DNA from: a virus
Lineage: Duplodnaviria > Caudoviricetes
Direction: 5' to 3' (one strand)
IMG/VR virus record: IMGVR_UViG_3300028862_000314
Location: 1 to 59,862 of that record
Length of the DNA stretch: 59,862 bases
The position numbers and the translations under genes are program-made. The notes beneath the pieces are model-generated. The model was not told the origin of the DNA. It made no database searches and saw only the letters and a list, made by a program, of their open reading frames with translations. Below are positions 6,083 through 41,106 of the stretch, piece by piece; within the stretch, counting starts at the first letter, position 1, and the number at the start of each line of letters is the position of its first letter.

Positions 6083-6540
6083 TACGGTTTCCAGTTAGGG
6101 AATATGAGGTTAGCTACTTTAGCCTCGTTCATTATCATCTGAGTGTTTTTCAATCTGCTGAACGGCACATCGAAATTATGATTCAGGTAAAGTTTAGCAT
6201 CCTGCCCGGTATTAACATCTTCAACCAATACATCACCGGTATTTGTGAGTACGGTTTTAGGCTTTTCTTCGGTAGGTACTACTACTTTAGGTTCTGCAGG
6301 TTTTTCAGCTTCGGGAAGTTTACCTTCTTCTTCTGCTGTTTTAACCAACTTAAAGGAACTGCCATAATGCTCGTGTGATTCCAATTCAGCCTGAATGAGC
6401 TTATTGGAAGTCCTGTAAGTCCCATTCTCTCTAACAGGATAATGACGGCCTCCTTTAAAGGCGCACTCTACACCCACCCCGTTAACTTCAACGGTGAGTA
6501 TGAGTTTCATGTATTGTATTGACTGATACGTTTTCATCAT
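6082..6540 (-). CDS. hypothetical protein after major capsid
   Basis: ORF in structural operon. Confidence 0.6.
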   Translation of the reverse strand: MMKTYQSIQYMKLILTVEVNGVGVECAFKGGRHYPVRENGTYRTSNKLIQAELESHEHYGSSFKLVKTAEEEGKLPEAEKPAEPKVVVPTEEKPKTVLTNTGDVLVEDVNTGQDAKLYLNHNFDVPFSRLKNTQMIMNEAKVANLIFPNWKP

Positions 6541-6547
6541 GGCTTTA

Positions 6548-6585
6548 AAAAATTAAAGCCCCCTCCCCGAAGGAAAGGGGCTTAA
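6548..6585 (-). terminator. intrinsic terminator/attenuator after major capsid gene
   Basis: AAGCCCC...GGGGCTT hairpin followed by T-rich tract on minus strand. Confidence 0.65.
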
Positions 6586-23200: not shown

Positions 23201-26200
23201 AGCAAATTCAACCTCCTGCATTGCTATTGCTTCGGGGTTTGAATGCTCTTTAGTTTCCAGTTGGTGATGTTTCCACTGATACGCACTACCGAAGTTTTCA
23301 AGGAAGAAACGACTTTCAGCATCTACCCTGCTTCCTCTTGCATTGGTTATTTCTTCGCCTGTATAGTCAAATAATACCCTGTTAGCATAGCGTAAATTGA
23401 AATGCCCTTTAAATGGTGTTGCTGAAAGGAATACTACTTTGGTATTTTCGTATGCTCTCTTTGCACGTTCAAGTAATGCAGGTTCGAGTTCTTTCTTTTT
23501 GGCTTCCAGATCATCAATAACCTTTGATAATACCTTTACTGCTGCTTCTGATGCTGCCGGATTAGCTGCATTGTCATTATTCAGGGATGCGTTAAGTTCC
23601 CTGTATTGGGTCATAGCTTCCCTGTGCTTAATCCAAACAGGGTGAACGTCAGTTATTCTCTGAAATGCTGTTGATACCGATACGTTGCTTAATCCGAAGT
23701 GTGCATAGGTAGTTGCTGATGCTGTACCTTTCTTTTCTTCCATTAACCGGTGTGATTCATCGTAAACGATTAAATCAAGGTCACGGTTTTTTAAAGCATC
23801 ATTTGAACGGAAATTTGCATAAGTACAAATGTTTATTCCTTTCCCGGCTGTCTTGGTATCTTCAAGGTTAGTAATATCAAGTCCTAAGTTAATGCCGTCT
23901 TTTATCCAGTCTTTAATCTTAGGTTCTGAGGGAACAACAATAAGTATCTGCCCCTTACCTTGCTTGGCAAAACGTTTAATAATTCCTAATCCCGTGAATG
24001 TTTTACCTGTGCCGGTCCCGTTGGTAAACAGAATACCCTTACCGTTGGCAAGGTCTTTTGTTTTGTGCGCTTCTGAGAAGAATCGGGTTTCTGCTTTCAG
24101 AACATCATCCTGTTGTTCGTCTAACAGATATGGGAGGGTTTGGCGAATGTTCGCCTCATCCATTAACTTAACTGGTATGGATTCGTTTTGCTGCTGTTGT
24201 ATCAGCCTTTTGGCTGTGCGCTGCTGAAACGTTTCTGGTAATCCTTCATTATTTGTGCCGTCTGGCTTACCTGTAACGATGTCATTGACATTATGTCCTT
24301 CTGGGCTATCAATGCTGCTTCCTCTGCCGTCAAAATCTCCGGCATCATTGTTCGTAACGATTGGTTTCGGGTCCGCTTGATATACTTCGTTATCGCCTTG
24401 TTCTCCAGGTAAATTGGCAAAAAGGCCACCACCGCCCTCGCTACGGTTTCGTCTGACTGCTTTTCCACTTCCTGCCGGAGTTTCATTTCGTACCGGTTCG
24501 CTGCTTCCTCGTCCACTGAGAACAGGAGTTCCATTTTCGGGTACTTCATTGGCACTGTTTCCGCTATCTGGTTGGCTACTTCCTGGTCTATCTGGTACAT
24601 CGTTGTTATTTTTGTCAAAGTTACGACCTAAATCGCTGTTTTTGTCCTCTTTAGGTGAATTTATTTTGTATGTGTACGCTCGTACTGCTGTGAAATCATC
24701 AAGTCTTGCATCTTCATTTTCAAGTAAGAAAGAAGCATATCCCTTTTTACAGGCTGAAAGCAATTCGGGAGAAATAGGAACGCCCTTAGATTCAATACCT
24801 GAAATAATATCAGCGAATTTATAAACGCCTTGTTTGGTGAAAGCATCTACAAGTTTAAATCCTGCTGCGTTTATCTTTGAAAGCTGCTCAGGGGTTTTAT
24901 CTGATGGCCCGTTGGAGTGTTTTAATATCGTGTTATCTTCTTCACCCAATAAACCTAGAAGATCGTTAAGAGCATTGTCAATATCATCATTCTGTTTGAT
25001 AACTTGTTTAATGGCATCTCCGGCAAACTTTGGCTTTTCAGCTTTTACTTTTGGTTCAGCAACTTTCTTTTGTTTGCTTCCTGCACTGCCCGTGTTAACC
25101 TTTGGAGCCTCGTTAACTGTTCCTCCGTCTGACAACTGAGCATTAAAAGTTCTGGCTTTGTTAAGGGTTGATTTTCGTTGACCGACTGCGTTGTTTTCGA
25201 TTTCATCTAATATTTCCTCCTTAGTTTGAACTTTATCGTTAAATAATCCTAACTGTCCGTTTTTATTTGCTGTTGCAATCTCGTTATACGAGTTGAAGAA
25301 TGATTTTGTATCTGTCTGATTGCCGGTTAATACGTCTGCAAGTAGTACCTCTGTTAAATTGTAAGGTGTAGTATCGAACATATCAGGCAAAGAAACCATA
25401 TCATAAACGCTTCCAAATTCACCTGAACGCATTTTGCCTAAAAGAACTACAGCCCCATTCATTTCGGGAAGTATTGAATATTCCCCTAGTGCCTGGTTCT
25501 CTAACAAAGGTAAGATACTTTTCGTTATTCTCAACCTGTATTGTTTCATTCCCTCTATATTCATCATACGAATAGAGGATTCGTCCATTACGCTACCGAT
25601 AAGGACTGTTTCAATCATATCCTTTCCTATGGCTGAAAAGGTTTTACCGTCAAGTATTTCGGCAATATCCATTGTGGTTATAATACCACTATCAACCATT
25701 AAGTCAATAAGTTCATTAGTTGCTGACGTACTGGCGTAGGCATCTGACATAGTATCAAACCTATCCAATACCCTTGCAATCTTCCGTACCTGTTCCGGCT
25801 TAATTGTTTTACTGATCTTGATAGCACGTTCTACCTTGTTTTGTGTCTTTTGGTCAGAAGCGTTGAACTTAGCAAATGTTTCAGTAGTATATTCCGGTGT
25901 TTCGTTCATTTGGAATATTACCCTGGGATTTTTAAAAGAAGATACTTGTTCGGGAGTGAACCCGTACATATCCGCATCCTGCATAAGCTGTTCTACATAA
26001 CTTGCATCTGTTCCATTTCCGGCTGCAAGTTCTCCACTCATGGTACGGTTATTACCTGATACTACAATTCCATCAGGAGAAACAATAACAGGATTATCAA
26101 GTGCTTTACCGTTGTATTGGTTAGCAATATCAATTACCTGTGCTTGCGCTGCCTTATCAGATCCATAATCACGATCATTAACTGTCTTTCCGTCTGGTGT

Positions 26201-29200
26201 TGTCGGGAATCCTTCGTTTTGTGAAAAGTTTAATGGGTTATGTGAAGGCGTAACCGTACCCGACTCTACAAGCATATATTTACCTGCAATTCGTTCATTG
26301 TTAGGTAGGGTAATTATCTTTTCCCGTCCCTCAATTTTAGGCGAATTGTTATATTTGCTTACAGCTACTTCTCCGGCTTTCCCCGGGAGTAGTTTATTAA
26401 TAACCGGCTTAATTACTCTAGGCGCAAGTGTAGGCACTTCCCCCTGTACCTTATCGGGTACAGATTGTACCCCTGTTGGCTCGTTTGTACCCGTTGGGGT
26501 ATTGCCTAATGATTCTTGTAGGTGCTGATCTCTTTCTTGGTCGCGTCTTTTCTTTTCTTCCCTATTTACCTTATCAATATCGTTTAATTCTTGTTCGGTA
26601 TAGTTTTTTGATGGATCATTGCTACCAACAATTACTTTTGCCGGATAAGTGACTATTCCCGTGTCGGTATCAATAGTTCCTCCATCTATTAGGCTAATAA
26701 TATAATCTCCGTCAGATGGATTCCTTGAAATGTTTAGCGATACGGCTACCTTATTAAAATCATATTTACTTCCTACCTCTAATTCGTAATACTCAACACC
26801 AATTTGTTTTAGCGATTCAACATATTCTTGCTTTTTATTGTTTATTCTATTTTCTATTTCGGGGGTTATAGTGCCTTTTTTGTTTAGATTCTCACGTATT
26901 GTTTCTAGGGACGATATAGCACTAAGCACTGATTCTGAATACTTTTTCTTAGCATCAAATACTGCATATTCATCACTATTAGGATCGTTTTTTATCTGAT
27001 CTAAATTGGGCTGATCTATAATATGCTTTGTAGTCCGTTCTATCCTTTCATCAACTTTCTTTTCAAACTCACTTGTTGCATTTTCTGCAACAGCTGGTTC
27101 AACCGTAGCCGTATTGTCTATGGTTGGCGCATTACCAGAAATGGCGATGCCTCCTTCGTTGCCCTTACTATCTTTACTTTCGTTATCATTCGGGGTCGAG
27201 TGGGAGGCATCGGACCGCACATCGCTAATATTACTATTAGCAGTAGAAGTCACTGGTACAAAGTTAGTAATTAATCCTTCGAGTTTTGCCTTTTGCTCGG
27301 TTAGTTTCTTTATTTCGTGTTCAATTTTTATAGCCTCGTCTAAATCGGAAATATTTTCCTGTTTCTTTTCTGCTTTAGCTATTTTATCGGTAACGGTTTT
27401 AATTATATTATTCAGATAGGTTGTAGCTTTTTCTTCACCAAAAGTATCTTTAAGATAGTTTAGCTTTTGGGTATCATCCATTTGCTTAGTATCTACATTA
27501 CCATCTTTATCGAGTGGGTAATTATTCAACTGTACGTTATTATCGGACGGTTGAACTGTCAACTGTTCTGGATTACTTGACGGTTGCTGTGCTTCAACTA
27601 TACTTTGCTGTTGTGCTAAAATTATATTTTGCTGCTCAATCTGCTGTGCTTGTTCGGCAAGTAGTTGTTCTGCTGGCTGTGCTTCCCAGGTAGTAGGATC
27701 GAAGTCTGTAAAGGGTACGGTAGATACCTTCCCGTTTTCATCTAAGATAATCGGAGGTTGTGAAGGATCTATATTGTCAAGGTCCGGTTTACCTTCTGCG
27801 TTAAGAGTTACACCTGATTTAATGAAATAAGGCTTACCATCAGCATGAAGGTTTGTTATTAAATGCGTTCCGTTATCGTTGAGGACTGGTGTAATCTTAT
27901 CGGAAAGGGCTTGTATGGGGTCCTGCTGTGGCGTAACGGGTGCTTGTGGTTCTGCTCCTGTTAACTGTCCTTGTATTGGCTGTTGTGGTGCTTGTGCTGC
28001 CTGTTCTGCCTGTGCAGTGATTGATTCGCCAGCCTCATAAGCTGATTTTAATATGCTTGCTTCTTTAGGATCGAGTGAAACAACCTTTTCAAAGTCACTT
28101 GCAGGTTCATTCCCAAAATCACCGTCAGATTTAACTACTGTATAATTATCCCCGTTACGTCCAATTACTTCAAAAACAGTTCCGTCCTTCTTGATACCAT
28201 AATTCAAAGTCTGGTTTGACTCTCTGGCCTTATCAATTCGATATGATGTTAATGCACGTCCGTAACCGGTAAGCAATCCCCCCATAACAAAACCACCTAG
28301 TGCAGCCTGCCATGTTTGAGTGCCTAATTCCTTCCAGCTTGCATCTTTATCATACAATCCGGCCTGTAATCCGTATTCAGATACCTGAGCGACAACTTCC
28401 TCAAATGCTTCTTCACCTGGTTGTAACAGGTATTTGTTATAAACAGTCTTTGCAATAGTGGGGTGTTGTGATAGAAACTTCTGGAATATCTCTTTGGCTC
28501 CCTTTTCCCCTGTTGTTTCAAGTATTTCTTTAGCAGCAAGTGTCTGCGCTGCCTTAGTCATATACTTACCCTTAACGAAACGTGAAACGGAACCTAATTG
28601 CTCTGTCCCTGTTTCAATAGCTGCAAACAATACGGCTAGCCCTAACTCTACTTCGGGATCGTAACCGGTTGAAGGTTTACCCTGCTTTATACTTTCATCA
28701 AGGTATTGATGGTATTGCTGTATTCCACTACCTGAACCCATTAAACCGAACACGGGCATAATTGCGCCTTGTGCGCCAGGAACTACCATTGCTGCTGCAA
28801 TAGGTAACATCTGTGGTAACATAGCAAAAGACTGCGCCACATTGGGGTTGGGTGCTTGCTGTATATCTTCTGCGCCTGATTTATTTAATGAGTTAGCCCA
28901 ATCACCTAGAATAGTTGTAGGTTTTGTAGCTAGTTCATTCCACATCTTTCGTTCTTCTTCCGGCTTGGTCTGATCTTCCGATAAAGAAGCAAATACTTCT
29001 CTCGTTGCTCGTTCTGCTGCCCCATAACCAGGTATTGCCGGATTTGATTCAGTCGCCATCCTTGCGACATAATCAGCACCCTGTAAAATAGCTGAACCCG
29101 TTTGTTTGAATCCTGCTTTTAATCCTTGTGTAACGTCACCGGGGGTTTGTCCTGCGTAGTTATCTTCCATGTTGTAACCAATACCTCCCGGCATAGTTAC

Positions 29201-29548
29201 TTCAAGGGGTTTAGGTTCTGCCTGTTTCTTTGCCTGTTCCTCGGTACTTATCTGCGCTCCTTGTTTTGCAAGGTCCATCAAACCACCATAAGTAGAACGG
29301 GCATTATTCCCTATGATATTTGCGTAATAAGGTGTATCAACATCATAAAACGGCTTAACGGTAGGGTTTTCACCTATGAATTTAGGTAACTGGCTGAAAG
29401 GAATAACGGCTGGATCTGCACCACCGATATTAAATAACCCTACTTCCTGTGCATCTGGATAGTCTTTAAGGAACTTATCAGCACTGCTTATTGGTATAGT
29501 AATATCCTGACCGTTGTAATTGAAATATCTGTTACCTTCTACTGGCAT
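17246..29548 (-). CDS. giant polyvalent ejection protein (DarB-like): ParB/DdrB-like, SF2 helicase, N6-adenine MTase, HExxH peptidase, LPD38-like C-terminus
   Basis: 4100 aa; SGNNR (ParB-like), TGTGKT and DESH (helicase), LEPSAGHG and NPPF (MTase), HETVH; C-terminal TVDFDR.G and KIPLP motifs. Confidence 0.8.
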   Translation of the reverse strand: MPVEGNRYFNYNGQDITIPISSADKFLKDYPDAQEVGLFNIGGADPAVIPFSQLPKFIGENPTVKPFYDVDTPYYANIIGNNARSTYGGLMDLAKQGAQISTEEQAKKQAEPKPLEVTMPGGIGYNMEDNYAGQTPGDVTQGLKAGFKQTGSAILQGADYVARMATESNPAIPGYGAAERATREVFASLSEDQTKPEEERKMWNELATKPTTILGDWANSLNKSGAEDIQQAPNPNVAQSFAMLPQMLPIAAAMVVPGAQGAIMPVFGLMGSGSGIQQYHQYLDESIKQGKPSTGYDPEVELGLAVLFAAIETGTEQLGSVSRFVKGKYMTKAAQTLAAKEILETTGEKGAKEIFQKFLSQHPTIAKTVYNKYLLQPGEEAFEEVVAQVSEYGLQAGLYDKDASWKELGTQTWQAALGGFVMGGLLTGYGRALTSYRIDKARESNQTLNYGIKKDGTVFEVIGRNGDNYTVVKSDGDFGNEPASDFEKVVSLDPKEASILKSAYEAGESITAQAEQAAQAPQQPIQGQLTGAEPQAPVTPQQDPIQALSDKITPVLNDNGTHLITNLHADGKPYFIKSGVTLNAEGKPDLDNIDPSQPPIILDENGKVSTVPFTDFDPTTWEAQPAEQLLAEQAQQIEQQNIILAQQQSIVEAQQPSSNPEQLTVQPSDNNVQLNNYPLDKDGNVDTKQMDDTQKLNYLKDTFGEEKATTYLNNIIKTVTDKIAKAEKKQENISDLDEAIKIEHEIKKLTEQKAKLEGLITNFVPVTSTANSNISDVRSDASHSTPNDNESKDSKGNEGGIAISGNAPTIDNTATVEPAVAENATSEFEKKVDERIERTTKHIIDQPNLDQIKNDPNSDEYAVFDAKKKYSESVLSAISSLETIRENLNKKGTITPEIENRINNKKQEYVESLKQIGVEYYELEVGSKYDFNKVAVSLNISRNPSDGDYIISLIDGGTIDTDTGIVTYPAKVIVGSNDPSKNYTEQELNDIDKVNREEKKRRDQERDQHLQESLGNTPTGTNEPTGVQSVPDKVQGEVPTLAPRVIKPVINKLLPGKAGEVAVSKYNNSPKIEGREKIITLPNNERIAGKYMLVESGTVTPSHNPLNFSQNEGFPTTPDGKTVNDRDYGSDKAAQAQVIDIANQYNGKALDNPVIVSPDGIVVSGNNRTMSGELAAGNGTDASYVEQLMQDADMYGFTPEQVSSFKNPRVIFQMNETPEYTTETFAKFNASDQKTQNKVERAIKISKTIKPEQVRKIARVLDRFDTMSDAYASTSATNELIDLMVDSGIITTMDIAEILDGKTFSAIGKDMIETVLIGSVMDESSIRMMNIEGMKQYRLRITKSILPLLENQALGEYSILPEMNGAVVLLGKMRSGEFGSVYDMVSLPDMFDTTPYNLTEVLLADVLTGNQTDTKSFFNSYNEIATANKNGQLGLFNDKVQTKEEILDEIENNAVGQRKSTLNKARTFNAQLSDGGTVNEAPKVNTGSAGSKQKKVAEPKVKAEKPKFAGDAIKQVIKQNDDIDNALNDLLGLLGEEDNTILKHSNGPSDKTPEQLSKINAAGFKLVDAFTKQGVYKFADIISGIESKGVPISPELLSACKKGYASFLLENEDARLDDFTAVRAYTYKINSPKEDKNSDLGRNFDKNNNDVPDRPGSSQPDSGNSANEVPENGTPVLSGRGSSEPVRNETPAGSGKAVRRNRSEGGGGLFANLPGEQGDNEVYQADPKPIVTNNDAGDFDGRGSSIDSPEGHNVNDIVTGKPDGTNNEGLPETFQQRTAKRLIQQQQNESIPVKLMDEANIRQTLPYLLDEQQDDVLKAETRFFSEAHKTKDLANGKGILFTNGTGTGKTFTGLGIIKRFAKQGKGQILIVVPSEPKIKDWIKDGINLGLDITNLEDTKTAGKGINICTYANFRSNDALKNRDLDLIVYDESHRLMEEKKGTASATTYAHFGLSNVSVSTAFQRITDVHPVWIKHREAMTQYRELNASLNNDNAANPAASEAAVKVLSKVIDDLEAKKKELEPALLERAKRAYENTKVVFLSATPFKGHFNLRYANRVLFDYTGEEITNARGSRVDAESRFFLENFGSAYQWKHHQLETKEHSNPEAIAMQEVEFAQKLMSQGVMSGRAIESDMDYSREFPLVALDNAELFNNGLNDIFNYETKEFEGLQSAARDVFYDYNYTTQLFESLKASMVIPRIEKHLALGRKVVVFHRRKQANVSPPFKTIIDRTVSMANEVLNDTNSSAENKEKARLALSQANNFEDKYADLLAYEQTLNYNPAIEQIQAAFGTDRVALINGDVSKANKPANIAKFNKDGSGVDIIVVQEEAGKEGISLHDTSGKNQRVLMSLSMPISSTTALQIEGRIFRIGQESNAIFENPLLGLDMEIENFGRNVNKKLSTTENLAVGDQARDLLRSFAEGVLWNSKTDDPNLEQGKGGKEYDKKAQQQLSEFRRAVLVYNTLQKTTGLRDQREGTDYYATPEPVGQKMVEWLGLQFEESALEPSAGHGAIAMWFPEYATVTAVEPSHALFSKLNARSGGGTRKIINDTFENLNIVNKFHGIAMNPPFGSGGKTAMDHVAKAFTHLKNGGRIVALIPEGKMSDRLDTFLYGTDENGKQINPDAHLVASIKLPSVTFKQAGTSVSTRIVVIDKYEHKSERQFANELGAENGRNYLAGKPILSTDEIQAEASRRFNEQNSKYSYPENLDYSHIEKIEDLFDALEDVTVNERLNVGESQPQQPSITPSNDNVIKIDAPYTLETVKHTQTGADLYMVKLGDRIASDEYAIIKDHAKSFGGFWDKWSKGFRFPDLESRQKFVDKAFAFPDENSIMKHSNSEFAGDHLKRISETQDVSERQKVYLQGQINSSFSIEQTDFTNLPLPERHSLINTEAKSILSELQNKTPLLVVQSEKDVRNWYFDNKASSGHMKEIEDALLDKSADAFFDGTYRHIVVIASRVPSMESIRPTIIHETVHAHNRAFLSARRSQILQYFHDLKGYESIDGMLNKSYDDYTEYDRADEALAYTIQGMIVNGVIPTEEPLTYKQIMDVVEGKEIIDNFERRFISTLYYGTNRKVLYNKPIGDSHSNLSNTGTDSGESQTSQGESGNDSMGTVLSSSQNRPRFAGELLGEGSVNLLKHSSNNNIPPSVNPTVDAERPQFAGMQMKRIIGKKDYGDRFADWIAENVHSVDLWQQEMAKDGIKGLKLFDVYSLLRRRKGLIKGLVDTFDEGVFTDLQTEIAHLIDQQHVSSKEIQRYLKAKSAIERNDNEGIRAISEDPEDSWNRQTVEQIVKEFEQKISPNLIDSLWSKVKASTDFTIDNLYLHSVITKEDHDKFNDRKYYIPLRGWEYDEMNPNPEDFYDYVNNEGQGITSQTYVKATIKAKGRTSEPGDPLPYIRQMAHSAIMTSVKNKIARTALQLFRMNKDNPAMGQYMYIKAPFKGNAHEAKRTRATAEKHEIMGYDNGDRFTLVLGDPHVAQSIKGENVLLKETSKWLGNSWMGKLTQFMKANFTGKNPNFFLNNFMFIDLPYAAITEGIRKEGEAGQFIRQIVTGKSFGTIHRDIRKQLNPLSQAETITAGLHNKQSIVSAIQQYGEQRVLDTLYKMWKDSGGPTGWMQLESFEKSAEKIEKEINRIRAKEADFGKGTGKLSGKDKVFYNYPLRKGAELMTYVMDMSEQSSRFAVFVSRKMAGQSSEQAALASKEATVDFDRTGQASTVFNQLFAFFKPTVSATYGIYKMGKENKAKFGYALGSFFALGVLQAILAYMTMPDDEGGENTYDNIPDYDKLNNLIINRGDGKYVKIPLPQFFRAIYALGVTSTMAAMGKLSAGEFAASNLKNLTGALTPFNVSGDDLGRTLVPTALTPAYDIAVNQNFAGKKVHKEQFTTKLEDRIPGSQEGLNSTFEPLVQATQWLNEFGGGNEYTKAGQGLDPETGLKEDNTLKTMLFDWNPADIQHVSETVGGGRVKFFRQVFNTAYNAVTPDGKMNEWDVPLFYRYLGRSQDSNPMSTYYNALKAVDEYKYQINNLKKDDPKEALQMMNKYQFMNELTYITKLADKNIKNIENNAENATSSEAMLKYKTDAENAAKIFKTQVGTLEKKYKINLK

Positions 29549-35195: not shown

Positions 35196-35481
35196 GGATA
35201 TTCAAATTCCCTGTTATGTATTCTTCAATAGCTAAATACTGATTATAAAAGTCACTATCAATATTACAATCCCTAAATTTGTTCATCGAATGATATACTC
35301 TCTGTATGTCGCATCCTAATATTTCAACTACTTGGTGATCGCTTAACTTTGTGGTCCGCTTCAACGCTATTATAATAATCTGATGGCAGCGCATAACTCG
35401 CCTGGCGCGACTACTCCTGAACTCTTTTGGAGTAACAGAATAAGTTTTACATACGAGTTCTATTATTTGCGCAGGTGTCAT
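35104..35481 (-). CDS. DnaA C-terminal-like HTH protein
   Basis: IIELVCKTYSVT...S.R.R and LS...V..ILG.D...VYHS. Confidence 0.55.
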   Translation of the reverse strand: MTPAQIIELVCKTYSVTPKEFRSSRARRVMRCHQIIIIALKRTTKLSDHQVVEILGCDIQRVYHSMNKFRDCNIDSDFYNQYLAIEEYITGNLNILSQSYSFPSSSGLVQHTNQVPVTSHLPELV

Positions 35482-36149
35482 ATATGAATCTGATTAATCG
35501 GTGATTGAATCCTGCTAATTAGTTTATCAGAAATATGAGTGTAGATAAGAGTAGTCTTTACGTTATTATGACCGGCAAGCTTCTGGATCAGATTAATGTC
35601 AGTACCGGCCTCTACCATGTGAGTGAATGCACAATGTCTGATTAAGTGTGTGTAAACTCTTTTACTTATTCCGGCCTTTTCTGCCAGTTGTTTCATAACT
35701 TCATTCACCGATCTATCTGAATACTGAATACCAAACTGTCCATTAAGGACATATTCCTTTGAATGATATTCTTTGTAGTACTTTTCGAGCAGTGGAATAA
35801 TGACATCAGGAAGCATCACTTGACGGTCTTTATTTCCTTTGCCCGCAACAATGTTTATAATCATTCTGGACCTGTCAATATGGGACCATTTAAGATTGAT
35901 TAATTCACTTACTCTTAATCCTGTTGAATAGAGAAGTGTTAGTATTACTTTATGCTTCGTATTTTCGCATACACTGAACATTCTTTGAATTTCATCCTGG
36001 GATAAAACTATTGGCAGTTTATTATTTTTCTTAGCGTAAGGAATCCACTTGAATTTATCTTTTTGATTCAGGCATATATCATAGAATTTCTTAATTGCAC
36101 TGTGATAACATTTTTGAGTGTTGGCAGCAATACAATAGCTACCTGACAA
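35478..36149 (-). CDS. tyrosine recombinase (integron-integrase-like), apparently 5'-truncated at the first cassette junction
   Basis: KLP.VLS, GLRVSE, GKGNKDR, HLIRH, GH, TLIYTH give an intact R-K-H-R-H-Y set; only a TTG start, located inside cassette 1. Confidence 0.85.
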   Translation of the reverse strand: MSGSYCIAANTQKCYHSAIKKFYDICLNQKDKFKWIPYAKKNNKLPIVLSQDEIQRMFSVCENTKHKVILTLLYSTGLRVSELINLKWSHIDRSRMIINIVAGKGNKDRQVMLPDVIIPLLEKYYKEYHSKEYVLNGQFGIQYSDRSVNEVMKQLAEKAGISKRVYTHLIRHCAFTHMVEAGTDINLIQKLAGHNNVKTTLIYTHISDKLISRIQSPINQIHI

Positions 36150-36564
36150 TTTTGTTTATAAGTTGAATTGGGGTACAGTTAAATTTTTCAGAAAGATTAA
36201 AAATTGTCATTGCTTGGTTTCTTGTTGCTGTCAAATCTAACTTCCATCTTATTTCTGCAAATATTCCGTTTTTACGCATTCCGGATAAAGTAAATTTTGA
36301 TACGTCCATTTGTCCGGGTACGCATTCTCTACACCAAAAATCATCTTGTTCATCTTCGGGTAGTTGATTATAGTATTGTTCTACTTTGTCAAAATCTAAA
36401 ATAGCAACATAGTTATCATCATCATCGTTCTCGAACCCACTTTTAAAAGGTTTCGAGTGTTTGCATCCTGAAAAGGCTTGTATTACCTTTTCACCACAAA
36501 TGAAAAATGTACTGCTGCCAACAACAGGTATATTCAATTGCGGGGTTTGTGGTAATTCGTTCAT
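36139..36564 (-). CDS. cassette 1 hypothetical protein (start inside attC loop)
   Basis: N-terminal LNIPVVGSST is encoded by the attC arm. Confidence 0.7.
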   Translation of the reverse strand: MNELPQTPQLNIPVVGSSTFFICGEKVIQAFSGCKHSKPFKSGFENDDDDNYVAILDFDKVEQYYNQLPEDEQDDFWCRECVPGQMDVSKFTLSGMRKNGIFAEIRWKLDLTATRNQAMTIFNLSEKFNCTPIQLINKIVR

Positions 36565-36646
36565 TTATTATCGTATTTAAGTTATTACTGTTTGATAATT
36601 TTGCGCTTCGTAGTCCGCAACTGAAATATACCCGCGGACGTTAGCC
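36516..36646 (+). repeat. attC-like site 1
   Basis: TGCCAAC..GGTATATTCAATTGCGG / CCGCAACTGAAATATACC..CGTTAGCC. Confidence 0.8.
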
Positions 36647-36733
36647 AATAAGTTGCGCTGTAATCGTGTCTTAAAAATCTAATCCAATTCAAGACGGTTT
36701 CGCAGCAATTCAATGAGCATTAGCGCAACCTAT

Positions 36734-37230
36734 TGCTAACAGAGTATATAAAAAATTAAATGGTTTGAGCAATCTGTGCGGGTTCGGCTGTCAAATCTTC
36801 GCCAGTTAAAGCATACCACAAGTTTTGCAATTGGTGTACAAAGTTTATTTCAGCAATCCACACTTCTGATTCTCCAAAATAAACCTGTCCTTCAACAGTA
36901 ATTACCAATTCACCTTTGTTATAGTATCCAGGGTGTCCGATCTCAAATCCAAGTTTCATTAACCAATATTCTGATATTGTCTTACCTTCTAATTCAGAAA
37001 ATGAAATAAGGTCAGTTTTTAATTTATCCTCAAATAAATATTCAACTCTTGCGAAATCGTATTTAATTTCAACAACGGTCAACAATGCCGGCTTGCCTAC
37101 TATCGGGTCCCATTTATACGATAAATAATTCCCAATTTTTAATTCACTTTTTTTCATGTTTTTACAATATTTAGGTAGAGTTAGTATTTTAGGTAACCAT
37201 TTAACTTTTCATATACTCCATACGTTATAA
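36734..37230 (+). repeat. attC-like site 2 (gene in loop)
   Basis: CTAAC.GAGTATATAAAAAATTAAATGGTT / AACCATTTAACTTTTCATATACTC..CGTTATA. Confidence 0.8.
36756..37157 (-). CDS. cassette 2 phage protein (ELKIGN...VHQLQNL family)
   Basis: Paralog of 12908-13264. Confidence 0.7.
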   Translation of the reverse strand: MKKSELKIGNYLSYKWDPIVGKPALLTVVEIKYDFARVEYLFEDKLKTDLISFSELEGKTISEYWLMKLGFEIGHPGYYNKGELVITVEGQVYFGESEVWIAEINFVHQLQNLWYALTGEDLTAEPAQIAQTI

Positions 37231-37512
37231 GCCATTTTTGCCACCGCACCCATACTTCATGCTTTTCGGTAAGCAATCCATCATTTCTTTATCCAACCAC
37301 AGCACTTTATCACAATTCTTACATTTCCAACCATAAGCAGTCCATTTACTGATTTGTGTTTTACCACTTAATGAATGCTTGTGCTGTGATTCTATCTCGT
37401 CAATGTATGGGTTTTCCATATCAAATTCGTGTTTTACCCCAAATAAAAAACGGCTTATAACAACAAGTATAGGTAATTTGCCGTTCTTCAATTTAACTTT
37501 TTCTATATTCAT
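37225..37512 (-). CDS. cassette 3 small Zn-binding protein (start in attC loop, TAA stop in crossover core)
   Basis: CKNC motif; LPILVVISR is encoded by the attC arm. Confidence 0.65.
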   Translation of the reverse strand: MNIEKVKLKNGKLPILVVISRFLFGVKHEFDMENPYIDEIESQHKHSLSGKTQISKWTAYGWKCKNCDKVLWLDKEMMDCLPKSMKYGCGGKNGL

Positions 37513-37583
37513 AATATTTATCTTTTAATTTAAGTTTCTACTAATTTTGATGGGCAAACTACCCATACTTGCAGCCGTTAGCA
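37455..37583 (+). repeat. attC-like site 3
   Basis: ATAAC..AAGTATAGGTAATTTGCC / GGCAAACTACCCATACTT..CGTTAGC. Confidence 0.8.
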
Positions 37584-37613
37584 GCTATTAAAACAGTACG
37601 CTCGTTCCTCGCC

Positions 37614-38150
37614 TGCTAACATGGCATAAGAACAAGTGCTGGCGGTGCTTCGATTTAGCATTTCAACTAATTTTACCATAATTATTTTTTTGCCAACGCT
37701 AAAACTTCTTTATTGTATTTTTTCTGATAACCTTGAAATATATGTGGAAAATTTTTTCCAGTACATACCATATAAATTGCAGTCTGTGAAACATTATATC
37801 TTAAAGCAAGTTCCTTTTTGGATGTTCCATTTTTTAAAACTTCAATAATTATTCTTATTGCTTTAAAATCATTTAATTTTCTGTGTGGATTTCTGAATGA
37901 CCGAACATTCATTCCTTTTGGAGTTTTTGATTTGCATATTCTTTGTATGTGATTAAAATTAACTGGATATAATTCTGCAATTTCTTTTGAAGATTTATTT
38001 TCCACAAACCATAAATTTTGTATTTCCAGTTTTTGTTTTTCTGTAAGTTTTATATTACTCATATTTCCCCTCCTTAAAAAAATAATTATTACTGTAGTGT
38101 TTCAATCATACTGTACGTTTGCACCTGTTCCTATGCCGATACCGTTAGCA
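37614..38150 (+). repeat. attC-like site 4 (gene in loop)
   Basis: CTAAC..GGCATAAGAACAAGTGC / GCACCTGTTCCTATGCC..CGTTAGC. Confidence 0.8.
37682..38062 (-). CDS. cassette 4 tandem-HTH DNA-binding protein
   Basis: SSKEIAELYPV and SKKELALRYNVSQTAI motifs. Confidence 0.7.
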   Translation of the reverse strand: MSNIKLTEKQKLEIQNLWFVENKSSKEIAELYPVNFNHIQRICKSKTPKGMNVRSFRNPHRKLNDFKAIRIIIEVLKNGTSKKELALRYNVSQTAIYMVCTGKNFPHIFQGYQKKYNKEVLALAKK

Positions 38151-38234
38151 ACTATATGCGCATAACAGCAACTATAAAAACGATTCCAACACTTAACACT
38201 TTCGCAGCAAGTCCGGGCAGATAGCGCATACAGT

Positions 38235-39038
38235 TGCTAACACAGTATATAACAAACGCGAACGGCACAGCAACTATTAAAGGGTAATCGTTTATCATCA
38301 CAAATAATAACATGGTTGTACAAGTGGTTTTTACCATAATTCAGGCTGTAATTTATAATTTTGAAATCTTTTCTCTTGTGCGTCGTAATAATCTTTGTCA
38401 TTCTCAAATCCTACAAAATCAATGTTGCCAGTTCTGTATGCTGCAATTCTGTTTGATCCTGATCCTAAATGCGTATCAATTACTTTTCCGCCTTCAGGTA
38501 AATAGTTTCTGTAAATCCAACTGTAAAGCTGAACCGGCTTTTGTGTTGGATGTATTTTGTTTTTCTCGAGCAGTACGGAATATCTAAATATCTTATTTGA
38601 TCCATCAAATGAAGTCCAAGCGTAATCAAACATTCCAAAGCTAAGTTTTTCGGGTTGTCGCTTATCCCAGATAATACAATGTTTTGTTGCTGGAAGTGGA
38701 TAATAGTTGCCACCCCAAATAATCTGATTTTTGGAAATTCTGAAAAGTTCATCAAAGTATTCCATTGATATTGGCTTATTATCCCATTTCTTTGCGGTCA
38801 ACCCTTTGTCTGTTACTAATCGAGGGCTATTACCTATACCAATTCCAAATTCAGGATCAACCACAGCCAAATCAAAACAGTTGTCGGGATAGTTACGCAT
38901 GTTCACAAGGCAATCATCGAAAAAAACTATATTATTCATGTTGGTTCAATATTTAGGTAAAGTGAGCGTTATTATTTGTTTACTTTTCGTTTGCAATCAG
39001 GCAGTGGGTTGCGCTTGTCATATACTAATACGTTATGG
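38235..39038 (+). repeat. attC-like site 5 (gene in loop)
   Basis: CTAAC..AGTATATAACAAACGC / GCGCTTGTCATATACT..CGTTATG. Confidence 0.8.
38331..38939 (-). CDS. cassette 5 DNA amino-methyltransferase (N4/N6, beta class)
   Basis: DPEF motif IV variant, HPTQKP, IDTHLGSGS. Confidence 0.85.
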   Translation of the reverse strand: MNNIVFFDDCLVNMRNYPDNCFDLAVVDPEFGIGIGNSPRLVTDKGLTAKKWDNKPISMEYFDELFRISKNQIIWGGNYYPLPATKHCIIWDKRQPEKLSFGMFDYAWTSFDGSNKIFRYSVLLEKNKIHPTQKPVQLYSWIYRNYLPEGGKVIDTHLGSGSNRIAAYRTGNIDFVGFENDKDYYDAQEKRFQNYKLQPELW

Positions 39039-39087
39039 GCAACCGTAAGACCGCTCCGAAAGGCAGCCTTACGACGCCACAATTTCA

Positions 39088-39225
39088 CTACTTTAGTTTT
39101 GCAACCAATTCAAGTAGTTTTTCTACTACGGTCGTAACCGCTTCTTTTTTCTCTGCCCTCATTAATGGGTCAATGCTTGCCGATAAAGTGGCAATTGCGT
39201 TTAATAAATCCTGTTGATTTTCCAT
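39088..39225 (-). CDS. cassette 6 small helical protein
   Basis: MENQQDLL...; ORF can be extended to 39285. Confidence 0.5.
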   Translation of the reverse strand: MENQQDLLNAIATLSASIDPLMRAEKKEAVTTVVEKLLELVAKLK

Positions 39226-39281
39226 ATAAATTGTGGGTTTTACAATGCCCTCCCAAGGCGTATTATTTAAAAAACGGCAGC

Positions 39282-39377
39282 CCATAACACGTTGTATACG
39301 TCAGTTTTGCCGTGTAATTTCGTATAAATTGATAGCTGTGTGCAGGCAAAACCGCACGCATACAACCACCGTTAGCC
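39282..39377 (+). repeat. attC-like site 6
   Basis: CATAAC..GTTGTATACGTCAGTTTTGCC / GGCAAAACCGCACGCATACAAC..CGTTAGC. Confidence 0.8.
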
Positions 39378-39464
39378 AATAAGCTACGCATACAGCGTGT
39401 AATAAAACGTTAATCTTAATTTTCAATCTTCGCATCGGTTCAGAAAGTTTGGTGCGTAGCCTAT

Positions 39465-39891
39465 TGCTAACAGCGTATATAACAAAATAAATTATTTGGG
39501 CTGTACGTGTGGCTCGGTAGGCGCATTCATCGCTTCATAATCAATGTACACATCATACAGTTGTTCTGTTGTACGCCAAACATTTATGTCGTAAAAAGAC
39601 CAATAAGATTTAACCCAAACCTTTTGATTTGCATCTGTTGGATGTTGTCTGCATATCCAATTATACTTAGTAGTCCATTCAACAAAATCAATTGCCATTA
39701 TTTTTGAATAGTTAGACATGGCATCAAGTACTTCTGGAACATCAAATGTTATTTTAACACCTGGTCTCCTTCTTTCTCTTGCCTGTTTAAGTATTTCTAA
39801 TCTTGTTATGCTTTCCATAATTGTACAATATTTAGGTAAAGTGTGTAATTGAGGTAATAATTTCTCTTGTCATATACGCCATCCGTTAGTT
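39465..39891 (+). repeat. attC-like site 7 (gene in loop)
   Basis: CTAAC.GCGTATATAACAAAATAAATTATT / AATAATTTCTCTTGTCATATACGC..CGTTAGT. Confidence 0.8.
39492..39818 (-). CDS. cassette 7 hypothetical phage protein
   Basis: AIDFVEW...TTEQLY motif; same leader as the cassette 2 and 5 genes. Confidence 0.65.
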   Translation of the reverse strand: MESITRLEILKQARERRRPGVKITFDVPEVLDAMSNYSKIMAIDFVEWTTKYNWICRQHPTDANQKVWVKSYWSFYDINVWRTTEQLYDVYIDYEAMNAPTEPHVQPK

Positions 39892-40080
39892 GCAATTACA
39901 GAAAAACTCAACAACTGCTGAAATAATAACTACATATACAGAAACATACAATAAAGTATATAAGATATAAAGTGATTGGTCTCCGTTGTAGGTTTTATAA
40001 TGAAAATCAGCCGTTTTAATAGATAACCAAATTGTTAACCCGAAAGTCACAAAAAATCCTAATAATATTAAAGTATTCAT
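39886..40080 (-). CDS. cassette 8 two-TM membrane protein (TAA stop in crossover core)
   Basis: Two hydrophobic segments; ATG at 40080. Confidence 0.6.
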   Translation of the reverse strand: MNTLILLGFFVTFGLTIWLSIKTADFHYKTYNGDQSLYILYTLLYVSVYVVIISAVVEFFCNCN

Positions 40081-40098
40081 AATTAATTTAATAACTGC

Positions 40099-40227
40099 AA
40101 CTAACACTAAATATAAAATATACGGGTGTCAGTGCATATTTGAACGGTATTACCTTTAATTTGCTTTCGTGTATCGGGATAGGATACCGCTTTTAATCCC
40201 GTACATTTCATATTTTTAACGTTGGCA
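40099..40227 (+). repeat. attC-like site 8
   Basis: CTAAC..AAATATAAAATATACGGG / CCCGTACATTTCATATTT..CGTTGGC. Confidence 0.8.
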
Positions 40228-40233
40228 GCAATA

Positions 40234-41028
40234 CTACCAAAGTGCCAGTTTCAAGTTTCGTTTATAATTGAACCATCTTTTTTCTTCGTCCTGAAAATAT
40301 TCCGAATCAATTTCAGTGCCGACAAATTCGCATTCAAATTTATCTGCAGTAATTCGGCTACTTCCTGAGCCTAAATGTGTATCAATTACTTTCATTTTGT
40401 ATATGCCAAATTCTTTAAAAATAGCATCGTAGAGCATCACTGGCTTATGGCAAGGGTGTATTCTTTTTTCATTTAGTTTTTTGTTTCCTTGCTGTACCAT
40501 TGGTTCACTAAGGCTTTTCGCTTGCATCATTCCAGCCCATAAAAGCGGTATTTCAATTTCGTAATTAATAGAGCTGCAGTAAGCATATTCAAATTGGTTA
40601 AAACTTACACCTTCCGCAAATCCTTTATTCCATTTAATTCGTCCTTTGCCTAATCCTGTCCATTCGGTATAGTCAGCTCCGAAAATTATTTGGTTTTTGC
40701 TTATTCGTTTTAGTTCATCAAAATATGCTTGAGGTGGTGTGGCATTATCCCAATCCTTAAAAGTATGTTTATGTTTATTTCTGTTTGGGTTTATTCGAGT
40801 TCCATTTTTTTGTTTTACAGTCGTTTTGGTTTCTTTCAAATAAGCCATTTTAGCAACTCCAATCCCATAAGGTATGTCACAAACCGCCCAATCGAAATAT
40901 TTATTAGGAAACAAACCCATAACAGACGAATAATGAGCATTAAACACCGTACTGCTGCCAACAACAGGTATAGCAAATAAAGGCTGCTGTGGTTTGCGGT
41001 CGGTAGTGCTTTCTATATTATTCATCAT
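40234..41028 (-). CDS. cassette 9 DNA amino-methyltransferase (N4/N6, beta class; start inside attC loop)
   Basis: DIPY motif IV variant, HPCHKP, IDTHLGSGS; FAIPVVGSST from attC arm. Confidence 0.85.
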   Translation of the reverse strand: MMNNIESTTDRKPQQPLFAIPVVGSSTVFNAHYSSVMGLFPNKYFDWAVCDIPYGIGVAKMAYLKETKTTVKQKNGTRINPNRNKHKHTFKDWDNATPPQAYFDELKRISKNQIIFGADYTEWTGLGKGRIKWNKGFAEGVSFNQFEYAYCSSINYEIEIPLLWAGMMQAKSLSEPMVQQGNKKLNEKRIHPCHKPVMLYDAIFKEFGIYKMKVIDTHLGSGSSRITADKFECEFVGTEIDSEYFQDEEKRWFNYKRNLKLALW

Positions 41029-41085
41029 CGGTTGATAGTTTACTGGTTTCTAATCCTTTACTTGCCATACCTGCGACCGTTAAGT
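40956..41085 (+). repeat. attC-like site 9
   Basis: GCCAAC..CAGGTATAGCAAATAAAGG / CCTTTACTTGCCATACCTG..CGTTAAG. Confidence 0.8.
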
Positions 41086-41106
41086 GCAATACCTACGCAC
41101 GAAACA

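Follow-up and report, generated by a model that had tools for sequence, protein, structure and literature searches.

Phages of the CTX-phi type (IMEX) integrate whole by means of host XerCD and a dif-like sequence, with Xer acting on a single-stranded DNA hairpin that mimics the core site around an unpaired centre and exchanging one strand. The pdif sites of Acinetobacter plasmids are conserved 28-bp duplex sequences. For the attC sites of integrons, an analysis of 263 classical sites gives 1.24 G:T mispairs per site on the recombined strand versus 0.39 (PMC5027507), so enrichment of wobbles on one strand is not in itself a new principle. Clusters of attC sites without an integrase (CALINs) have been reported in phage genomes, one of them that of Polaribacter phage P12002L, which infects Bacteroidota (Qi et al. 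2023, PMC9892861). As presented in that report, CALIN sites are found by classical attC models and recombined by IntI1, and its account of CALINs describes no dedicated phage recombinase (PMC9892861).

In an environmental phage, nine gene cassettes stand in an integron-like row at 36120-41081 of the window, the whole 59.9-kb stretch of DNA analysed (Table 1). Each cassette has GTT/AAC boxes at both ends and two stems, L (ordered AAC, arm, loop, arm, GTT) and R (GTT...AAC), and in every one (9/9) one of the two stems surrounds the translated ORF. As in integron attC sites, AAC/GTT triplets of inverted R boxes bound the cassettes, the hairpins are imperfect and conserved in structure rather than in sequence, the spacer at the centre is left unpaired and is asymmetric, and the sites are conserved in length (about 122 nt here). 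The array also adjoins the gene of a Xer/IntI-clade tyrosine recombinase, which in intact relatives has an attI-like site beside it, and on both counts, cassette bounds and enzyme, the originally predicted analogy with attC fits. Unlike classical bacterial integrons, the element is phage-borne, its ORFs occupy the strand that would be recombined and are read towards attI and the recombinase gene, which is co-oriented with the cassettes and downstream of them, and an ORF may lie in a hairpin loop; the R stem, unlike that of attC, reaches 15 bp. Phage CALINs likewise are phage-borne cassette-like arrays with recurrent DNA methyltransferase cargo, as described in PMC9892861. The R arms of cassette 9 are the same as those of cassette 1, and a complementary R partner for the right-end flank is absent throughout the 59.9-kb window.

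Table 1. Features of the cassette array and adjoining recombinase gene, in window coordinates; A/C gives the positions of an A on the left arm opposite a C on the right arm, and bits are covariance model scores.
Feature	Position	Strand	Details
Recombinase gene, truncated	35478..36125	-	tyrosine recombinase; Pfam Phage_integrase 1.2e-39
Array left end	36120..36122		GTT (minus: AAC); last R box of array and recombinase codon N62
Cassette 1	36120..36639	-	R stem 36120-36134 + 36508-36522, A/C 36130/36512
Cassette 1 L hairpin	36520-36642		~122 nt; A/C 36537/36621, one bulge; 100.6 bits
Cassette 1 ORF	36139-36564	-	start in L loop
Cassette 2	36640..37223	-	compact R hairpin 36640-36740, A/C 36651/36730, one bulged base
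Cassette 2 L stem	36742-36765 + 37195-37218		A/C 36750/37210, 36755/37205; surrounds ORF
Cassette 2 ORF	36756-37157	-	phrog_10066 match
Cassette 3	37224..37576	-	R stem 37224-37239 + 37446-37461, A/C 37234/37451
Cassette 3 L hairpin	37459-37579		A/C 37471/37564, 37476/37559; 103.1 bits
Cassette 3 ORF	37225-37512	-	start in L loop
Cassette 4	37577..38143	-	short R stem 37577-37584 + 37613-37620, without wobble
Cassette 4 L stem	37623-37639 + 38121-38137		A/C 37629/38131, 37635/38125; surrounds ORF
Cassette 4 ORF	37682-38062	-	HTH
Cassette 5	38144..39031	-	compact R hairpin 38144-38241, A/C 38154/38231
Cassette 5 L stem	38244-38271 + 39001-39026		A/C 38251/39019, 38256/39014; surrounds ORF
Cassette 5 ORF	38331-38939	-	DNA methyltransferase
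Cassette 6	39032..39370	-	R stem 39032-39046 + 39274-39288, A/C 39042/39278
Cassette 6 L hairpin, short	39286-39373		88 nt; A/C 39298/39359, 39303/39353, one bulge; 54.1 bits
Cassette 6 ORF	39088-39285	-	
Cassette 7	39371..39884	-	compact R hairpin 39371-39471, A/C 39382/39461, one bulged base
Cassette 7 L stem	39473-39496 + 39856-39879		A/C 39481/39871, 39486/39866; surrounds ORF
Cassette 7 ORF	39492-39818	-	
Cassette 8	39885..40220	-	R stem 39885-39898 + 40092-40105, A/C 39895/40095
Cassette 8 L hairpin	40103-40223		A/C 40115/40209, 40120/40204; 103.7 bits
Cassette 8 ORF	39886-40107	-	small, membrane-like
Cassette 9	40221..41078	-	R stem 40221-40234 + 40949-40962, A/C 40231/40952
Cassette 9 L hairpin	40960-41081		A/C 40972/41066, 40977/41061; 107.6 bits
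Cassette 9 ORF	40234-41028	-	DNA methyltransferase; start in L loop
Array right end	41079..41092		GTT, then flank GTTAAGTGCAATAC

The arm mismatches described in the original prediction, A on the left opposite C on the right, are present. On the minus strand each becomes a G.T pair, and the 18 stems of the window carry 32 of these, with G always on the 5' arm, and 0 T.G; there are only four other 1x1 mismatches (AA, TT, GA, TT), alongside 10 bulge or loop entries. The L-stem layout (7-8 bp, A/C, 4 bp, A/C, at least 6 bp) is exact in 7/9. The two L mismatches had been placed 5-6 nt apart; 5 nt is right, and the range is not, with cassette 4 the single exception at 6 nt. The first site does have only one A/C, together with a one-base bulge. 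A mismatch expected about 11 nt into the cassette-body (R) stems follows 10 bp, at position 11, in 8/9, the R stem of cassette 4 being only 8 bp long. An additional fixed A/C, unlisted in the original prediction, sits beside the R box (plus AACA...CGTT, minus AACG...TGTT; 9/9).

Across the 59.9-kb window, a covariance model built from 15 sites matched nothing but the array (5 matches, E 1e-20 to 5e-9). Each of its 65 best matches (E <= 0.16; window plus 17 loci) is upstream of the recombinase gene and on that gene's sense strand, an orientation count that is biased towards the coding strand because the site-collecting model rewards G.U. Twelve further matches in other family loci were all on the + strand, and the model gave 0 matches in 18 loci with distant Xer genes. 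Run against P12002L, which stands beside 14 other CALINs in PMC9892861, it found nothing, the best E of 0.12 falling inside a CDS.

In an alignment of 67 distinct sites from 25 sources, which carries the same coding-strand bias, 93.9% of cells pair, versus 60.5% when shuffled and 36-56% when the partners are slid, and compensatory change is seen in 18/19 L-stem pairs; pairing kept by covariation, as predicted from the window, thus holds in the larger set. The central spacer is asymmetric, as predicted, with sizes other than the proposed 9 versus 11-13 nt: on the minus strand, AACG is 3-5 nt from the stem in 64/67 sites and the stem 1 nt from TGTT in 59/67. Extra bases are absent from the 5' arm in 38/67 sites and from the 3' arm in 45/67; unlike in attC, extrahelical bases are not a conserved feature. 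G.U occupies the AACG/TGTT position in 62/66 sites and L-stem position 13 in 56/64, whereas the first predicted L-stem wobble, at position 8, is present in only 17/64 and is not conserved beyond the window's own sites. Scans free of the G.U bias, which include some chance hairpins, gave G.T at position 11 of 46/71 candidate R stems and, among 105 coding-strand mismatches, 49 5'G.3'T against 5 T.G, 7 A.C and 9 C.A, so random placement of the mismatches fails as an objection to the original prediction. The phage wobbles are fixed in position, where attC has a statistical excess; what is new relative to classical attC is these fixed positions, the lack of extrahelical bases and the Xer-like recombinase.

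Folding energies favour the minus strand by a modest gap. Folded arm against arm with DNA parameters, the L stems of the window reach -11.3 to -17.1 kcal/mol on the plus strand and -14.5 to -20.8 kcal/mol on the minus strand, which is better in 9/9; the plus strand folds too, about 2-4 kcal/mol worse. Across 65 sites, again a set biased towards the coding strand, the mean coding-versus-antisense difference is -2.3 kcal/mol, with the antisense strand as stable or more so in 11/65 and better in 10/65. The claim that only the minus strand folds well was therefore overstated. In whole-site folds compared with shuffled sequences, the minus strand stands out clearly in only three of five short sites (z -3.24, -2.29 and -2.77) and not in the other two (-0.71 and -0.74). 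In one subfamily, the coding strand carries C.A around stem position 4-5 (9/105 mismatches), which favours the other strand. Within the array, single-strand folding would be poor for stems whose arms are separated by 400-950 nt. One favoured strand, richer in G:T mispairs, is also a property of attC as described in PMC5027507.

The recombinase homologues are 275-277 aa long and belong to the Xer/IntI clade; aligned with XerA (5hxy) and IntI4 (2a3v), the enzyme is missing some 40 residues of the IntI-specific insert, and it scores 181 against the NCBIfam IntI profile, below the cut-off of 265. No relative above 35% identity was found among 50,697 GenBank phage records. When the 275-aa homologue P0001 was searched by tblastn, residues 61-275 matched 35481-36125 at 99.5% identity, and residues 1-60 matched nowhere in the window. 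The window copy lacks its first ~60-61 codons and the attI-like site; it breaks off at codon 62, precisely where the last AAC of the array lies, and a run X1 contig covering 34900-37227 reads across this left end with 0 differences. Because the recombinase is truncated, the window sites may be relics, and the array has probably become frozen, barring an intact copy that works in trans. In 18 of the 22 relatives with sufficient upstream sequence, the YAAC of the last cassette abuts a conserved ATATGT motif, 50-60 nt upstream of the recombinase ATG (~115 nt in L022).

DNA breakpoints fall at the AAC/GTT boxes. Over 39484-40223 a contig from run X4 follows the window with 4 differences, and the two part directly after the GTT at 40221-40223. 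The hairpin of cassette 6 has 84% identity to positions 6461-6548 of locus L007, and in run X1 it also turns up in other sequence surroundings.

On balance we favour, with moderate confidence, the reading that the stems are folded single-stranded DNA recombination sites of a phage-borne integron-like system, used on the minus (coding, wobble) strand; junction positions, recombinase linkage, strand bias, covariation, conservation and anatomy are observed, whereas the single-stranded substrate, the cleaved strand and the function of the wobbles are what we infer here, and the interpretation in the original prediction is partly supported. On the coding strand a cassette begins with C-G and 3-5 unpaired nt, followed by the L hairpin (19-bp stem, G.T at 8 and 13, loop usually 71-74 nt), 1 nt, T-GTT, the R 5' arm, the body and an R 3' arm ending in AA. 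In the excised circle, the L stem would join the 15-bp R arms, with their G.T at position 11, in a single long imperfect helix, centred on the conserved AACG/TGTT box and the asymmetric unpaired spacer. The 275-aa enzyme, encoded just downstream in intact relatives behind a putative attI-like site (YAAC, 3-5 nt, ATATGTA), would cleave the folded coding strand within 5'-AA↓C-3' of its 5' R box and exchange one strand only, as integron integrases do. On the coding strand, cassettes end at 5'-AA↓C, to the 5' side of each L hairpin. From this C to the stem (C, G, 3-5 nt) there are 5-7 nt, the usual size of a tyrosine-recombinase central region. CTX-phi similarly combines a Xer-family enzyme with folded single-stranded DNA and single-strand exchange, the latter two being proposed for the array; unlike the system here, it is not known to have cassettes, AAC/GTT boxes or arrays. 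IntI is described as cleaving the recombinogenic attC strand at the corresponding 5'-AA↓C (PMC5027507).

The wobbles may set strand choice, as originally suggested from the sequence. G.T would keep the coding-strand hairpin paired where the complementary strand has A.C mismatches, giving two otherwise near-identical hairpins different stability and geometry. Wobbles at the distal arm edges (R11, L13) and next to the cleavage triplet might also be direct recognition cues for the enzyme, in which the domain that IntI uses on extrahelical bases is missing. In the window copy, codons 1-61 and the attI-like site were, on this reading, lost through a crossover at the AAC inside the recombinase gene.

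The coding strand is also the mRNA, so the G.U pairs could serve RNA, and the hairpins might act in a polycistronic accessory-gene transcript, serving in RNase III-type processing, stabilisation or control of translation, their link to recombination being secondary. In the window, with its nine ORFs, as in all relatives, the wobble strand is the sense strand of ORFs and recombinase alike, fixed G.U amid free covariation is typical of structured RNA, the stems are ~19-24 bp with internal loops, and the start codons of cassettes 1, 3 and 9 lie inside L loops. We nevertheless consider a primary RNA role unlikely. Every cassette has one stem that surrounds a whole translated ORF of 200-800 nt, an arrangement that fits poorly with a stable RNA helix; DNA breakpoints fall on the boxes, only circle excision brings the R arms and the L stem together into one stretch, the hairpin is followed by TGTTR and no T run, and no Rfam family matched, the best being a chance-level plant miRNA (E 0.49).

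Less probable still are double-stranded Xer-type sites, alternating and inverted, that flank modules as in plasmid pdif modules, with the A-versus-G differences marking left and right arms for a duplex-binding recombinase. The enzyme is Xer-like, the junctions alternate (L arm-spacer-R arm, then R arm-spacer-L arm) with ORFs in either kind of segment, much as pdif gene modules lie between Xer-type sites in alternating orientation, and stem positions 5-7 of the L arm are conserved in sequence (TAT), recurring in the attI-like site. Unlike in pdif, however, most arm positions vary freely and covary with a partner up to 950 nt away, which duplex recognition does not need, and since all wobbles share one polarity the segments do not invert. 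Very improbable, to our mind, are dispersed MITE- or REP-like hairpin repeats without a dedicated recombinase, their asymmetry being a product of biased mutation, for instance deamination of cytosines in an exposed strand. The hairpins at 39285-39374 and 40102-40223 do occur in other sequence contexts, one of them at a summed contig depth of 58-108 versus ~9 for the phage; yet the wobbles are fixed at R11, L13 and the box rather than scattered, sites occur only beside the recombinase family within the sequence searched, and no HUH or other transposase appeared among the ORFs scanned.

Orphan DNA methyltransferases are numerous in the arrays of the window and its relatives, which suggests that these arrays probably stock anti-restriction and other accessory genes.

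The record is linear (59,862 bp, G+C 39%, estimated completeness 69%), and its phage genes include NinG and, on the minus strand, a single 4,100-aa ORF that is unusually long given the phage size. Within a minus-strand gene block lies an array of nine units built to the same plan. On the plus strand, each unit reads as GTT and R′ arm, body, R″ arm and AAC, 0–4 nt, L″ arm, loop, L′ arm, 4–7 nt and the next GTT; the R arms pair with each other within the unit, as do the L arms. Each cassette carries one minus-strand ORF. Two of these encode DNA methyltransferases and one an HTH protein, and the others have no family.

Coordinates of the cassette array, its hairpins and related features (in the window unless an IMG/VR locus is named)
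Feature	Position	Strand	Description
Cassette array	36120-41081	read on plus	Nine same-plan units
Cassettes 1, 3, 6, 8, 9			ORF in body; L hairpin compact, 121-123 nt (88 nt in cassette 6)
Cassettes 2, 4, 5, 7			ORF within L loop; R hairpin compact, 44-101 nt
Recombinase ORF	35478-36149		Tyrosine recombinase (Pfam 1.2e-39)
Long ORF	17246-29548	minus	4,100 aa
R hairpin, cassette 2	36640-36740		Compact; near copy of cassette 7 R hairpin
R hairpin, cassette 7	39371-39471		Compact; near copy of cassette 2 R hairpin
Hairpin	39285-39374		Also found in other contexts
L hairpin, cassette 8	40102-40223		Also found in other contexts
Common leader, cassettes 2, 5, 7	37153-37201, 38940-38970, 39820-39850	minus	Precedes ATG
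ORFs started in L loop	36523-36564, 40963-41028		Run through L 3′ arm and R box
ORF started in L loop, L007	7153-7288		Runs through L 3′ arm and R box
ORF started in L loop, L013	2469-2606		Runs through L 3′ arm and R box
C.A subfamily site, L013	118-243		L stem
C.A subfamily site, L015	1480-1549		L stem
C.A subfamily site, L017	7626-7743		L stem
C.A subfamily site, L023	1385-2017		L stem
Perfect inverted repeat, L003	15084-15379		Longer than 35 nt; at contig end

The original prediction, that mismatches in the arms place A on the left opposite C on the right and so form G.T wobbles on the minus strand, was confirmed and extended to a family of sites. In the window it holds for the interior mismatches of both stem kinds: when the 18 stems were folded as two strands, the minus strand had 32 G.T pairs, G being on the 5′ arm in every one, and T.G never occurred; the remaining irregularities were four 1x1 mismatches of other types and ten entries for bulges or loops. 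In L stems, two wobbles separated by 4 bp (5 in cassette 4) are preceded by 7–8 bp and followed by at least 6 bp; the L stem of site 1 has the predicted single wobble, plus a bulge. R stems have 10 bp followed by a wobble at position 11 in eight of nine cases, again as foreseen, and all nine have an extra wobble by the R box (AACG...TGTT on the minus strand) that had not been listed. The further claim that only the minus strand folds well stood as a preference, with the minus strand more stable in 9/9 L stems, 9/9 R stems and 5/5 short whole sites (by 2–4 kcal/mol), but the plus strand also folds. Compared with shuffled sequences, the whole short sites were clearly better in only three of five. 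The near-identical R hairpins of cassettes 2 and 7 each have, on the minus strand, a single bulged base in the 3′ arm, and these bulges are the only feature resembling an extrahelical base noted among the window's R stems.

The recombinase family is encoded by 23 IMG/VR loci (L002–L024) at 54–83% identity. A covariance model trained on 15 sites gave 68 matches at E ≤ 1 across the window and 24 loci. Of these, the best 65 come from the window, locus L025 and 16 of the 23 loci, and every one is upstream of the recombinase gene on its sense strand; the three weakest (E 0.25–0.66) break this rule. Other family loci added 12 model matches, all on the recombinase-sense strand, and 18 loci with only distant Xer genes gave none. 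AAC and GTT are invariant in 15/15 seed sites, and the box pairs A-U, A-U and C-G are retained in 63–66 of 66 sites. Across 67 distinct sites, 18 of 19 L-stem pairs have a compensatory change, bearing out the proposed covariation of the arms, and 93.9% of paired cells are complementary versus 60.5% in column shuffles and 36–56% with slid partners.

Fixation of the wobbles in this larger alignment varied with position: the G.U of the box (62/66) and that at L-stem position 13 (56/64) are near-constant, but the one at position 8 occurs in only 17/64. Each site is an imperfect hairpin with an unpaired central spacer (3–5 nt on the 5′ side in 64/67, 1 nt on the 3′ side in 59/67) and a variable terminal loop, whose lengths form a main cluster of 71–74 nt and a second class of 28–42 nt. 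There is no conserved bulge among the 67 sites, with no extra base in the 3′ arm of 45 or in the 5′ arm of 38; G.T pairs at fixed positions stand in place of extrahelical bases. Because the covariance model rewards G.U, all family loci were scanned a second time on the sense strand, with only Watson–Crick matches counted and symmetric spacer ranges. This unbiased scan returned 43 distinct hairpins (at least 16/19 matches), some of them chance or unrelated repeats, with 105 mismatches: 49 were 5′G.3′T, compared with 5 T.G, 7 A.C and 9 C.A. A scan of the same type for R stems gave 71 distinct candidates, 46 with G.T at position 11. One L-stem subfamily, with arms starting (C)GGGCTT or GCAACTT, has on the coding strand a C.A at stem position 4–5 besides the G.T at 13–14, and this C.A mismatch favours the opposite strand. 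Far downstream of the recombinase, locus L003 ends in a perfect inverted repeat that is unlike the cassette sites and lacks mismatches.

Evidence that the boxes are points of DNA exchange came from the array end and from variant contigs. Among relatives with enough upstream sequence, the variable R arm of the last cassette ends in YAAC directly adjoining a conserved ATATGT in 18 of 22, located 50–60 nt before the recombinase start (~115 nt in locus L022); four loci have a variant motif. YAAC/ATATGT occupies the position expected of an attI-like site, and this arrangement also places the crossover at the AAC next to the motif rather than at the GTT across the hairpin. In metagenome run X4, a 1,851-nt contig follows the window through 39484-40223, apart from four differences, and diverges right past the GTT at 40221-40223, where a new arm starts GTTATG. 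The two hairpins found in other contexts have their ends at TAAC and GTT(A). Run X4 has zero cover over 37624-38304 and little until 39212, with no contig bridging the gap, which is therefore given no weight.

In run X1, the summed contig depth over the L hairpin of cassette 8 is 58–108, versus ~9 for the neighbouring phage, with many variants, and this hairpin type seems common to many cassettes or phages of the X1 community. Two apparent X1 joints (39310 to 40102 and 40227 back to 39285) were rejected: they have high depth, their shorter sides measure only 27 and 39 nt, and they probably derive from other genomes with the same hairpins. None of the fetched loci was a near relative usable for comparing cassette presence and absence; at the nucleotide level the recombinase gene is at best ~73% identical to any of them, L011 and L012 form the only near-identical locus pair, and in scans of metagenomes and genomes protein identity did not exceed 77%.

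The window's recombinase is cut. Homologues are 275–277 aa long, and P0001, a 275-aa homologue, is almost identical over the shared part; the window encodes residues 61–275 only, and residues 1–60 have no counterpart anywhere in it. The break lies at codon N62, where one AAC serves as both this codon and the final AAC of the array (36120), and what is lost is codons 1–61 together with the attI-like site that relatives keep 50–60 nt before the ATG. In this copy, the recombinase appears to have inactivated the gene that encodes it. The sequence following the fused AAC loosely resembles the attI-like motif. The recombinase/array junction is also crossed, without difference, by an X1 contig and is therefore not confined to a single assembly, although X1 may be the source sample.

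By sequence comparison, the models nearest to full-length P0001 are those of XerA-type recombinases and integron integrases, and the protein falls below every curated cut-off: it scored 210.8 against 220 for the XerA-type NF040815, 173.9 against 335 for XerC, 172.7 against 330 for XerD, 181 bits against 265 for TIGR02249 and 107.5 against 435 for PRK15417. Aligned with IntI4 (2a3v), residues 12–176 match chain 11–180 and residues 200–272 match chain 247–319, leaving 23 residues opposite 66; the IntI-specific additional domain was not found, ~40 residues of the insert being missing from this alignment. The family comprises at least 120 clusters at 73–100% identity in public metagenomes. No relative above 35% identity was found in 50,697 deposited phage records, and two MAGs account for all occurrences of the family among species-representative genomes: one contig from Chitinophagales (60%) and one Bacteroidetes MAG (35%).

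Most likely, these are integron-like single-stranded-DNA recombination sites whose fixed G.T wobbles would mark the recombined strand, and which an Xer-like enzyme without the IntI domain would serve. Cassette ends read 5′-AA|C on the minus (coding) strand, 5′ of every L hairpin, and the stretch from this C to the stem is 5–7 nt, the usual size of a tyrosine-recombinase central region. IntI cleaves the folded recombinogenic strand of attC within the 5′-AAC-3′ triplet (PMC5027507); because the polarity here is the same, we infer that the wobble strand is the one cleaved. Transposon hairpins of the HUH type were ruled out, as no HUH enzyme occurs among the ORFs scanned, and so were invertible, shufflon-like segments, since wobble polarity is uniform and every inverted-repeat pair has its own sequence. 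The same hairpins may also serve in mRNA; they lie on the coding strand, and Rfam 15 held no family match, with just one chance-level hit (24.3 bits versus a gathering score of 107, E 0.49).

The sites share with integrons the AAC/GTT triplets of R boxes at cassette boundaries, where both the array ends and the variant contig break, as well as the imperfect hairpin with an unpaired central spacer and variable terminal loop. To our knowledge, integrons are the only well-studied tyrosine-recombinase system that reads folded single-stranded hairpins by shape. Strand discrimination by the integron enzyme is tied to the IntI-specific domain and extrahelical bases, whereas the recombinase here lacks that domain, and the sites have fixed G.T in place of a conserved bulge opposite the AAC triplet. 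Integron ORFs lie on the top strand, pointing away from attI and Pc; in contrast, all nine here are on the 5′-AA|C strand and point towards the recombinase. Xer/dif is a further comparison, in that the protein is closest to XerA, under the curated score. However, Xer acts on a conserved 28-bp dif-like duplex, whereas the arms here vary by site, with conservation limited to AACG/TGTT and a short TAT motif. Nivina et al. credit attC strand choice to extrahelical bases, the unpaired spacer and the terminal loop (PMC5027507; PMC8946536), and wobble bias as such is not new, having been described by the same authors (PMC5027507).

Qi et al. (2023) reported attC clusters in phages, with methyltransferase cargo (PMC9892861). 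The present site model gave no match in Polaribacter phage P12002L, a Bacteroidota phage with published attC sites. In openly accessible articles, main text only, we found no description of the present recombinase family with hairpin cassettes, or of fixed wobbles in attC-like sites. A Pfam scan covered 84 of 101 array ORFs from 15 loci, 17 short or overlapping ORFs having been omitted by eye. It identified three N6_N4_Mtase and two C5 methylases, and one each of MT-A70, Dam, D12, EcoRI methylase and Mom, some of which may be the same member; the remainder were a few HTH proteins and a majority without a family. Matches of GenBank phages to the array were limited to methyltransferase fragments. 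The runs with the window's stretch are peat metagenomes, joined by two wastewater runs with small shares only.

These data point to mobile accessory genes of phages as a large pool not yet described, in which DNA methyltransferases are numerous. Integron cassette logic appears here with neither the IntI domain nor extrahelical bases, and instead with a small Xer-like enzyme and with near-invariant G.T spaced at defined distances from the cleavage triplet, providing a natural experiment on strand choice that is tractable with oligonucleotides and one 275-aa protein. More tentatively, and in our estimate with slightly less than an even chance, uncultured Bacteroidota phages may commonly encode their own, separate counterpart of the integron, in which a minimal Xer-like recombinase without the IntI domain captures and shuffles anti-restriction and other accessory cassettes via folded coding-strand hairpins. 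Strand identity would then be set by three to four fixed G.T and not by extrahelical bases, and the system would either have arisen convergently or preserve an early form of the integron mechanism.

Several cassettes also share sequence around their ORF starts. The ORFs within the L loops of cassettes 2, 5 and 7 have a common leader, ACCTAAATATTG, followed by a few bases and then ATG, which may be a cassette-borne promoter or translation start; in run X7, the copy in cassette 2 is present in other contexts too. ORFs started in L loops traverse both the L 3′ arm and the adjoining R box. A common N-terminal stretch is therefore seen in unrelated proteins: cassettes 1 and 9 share IPVVGSST, and IESTT recurs among several loops. 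The R 5′ arms of relatives often begin GTTATG, and a start codon therefore lies within the box itself.
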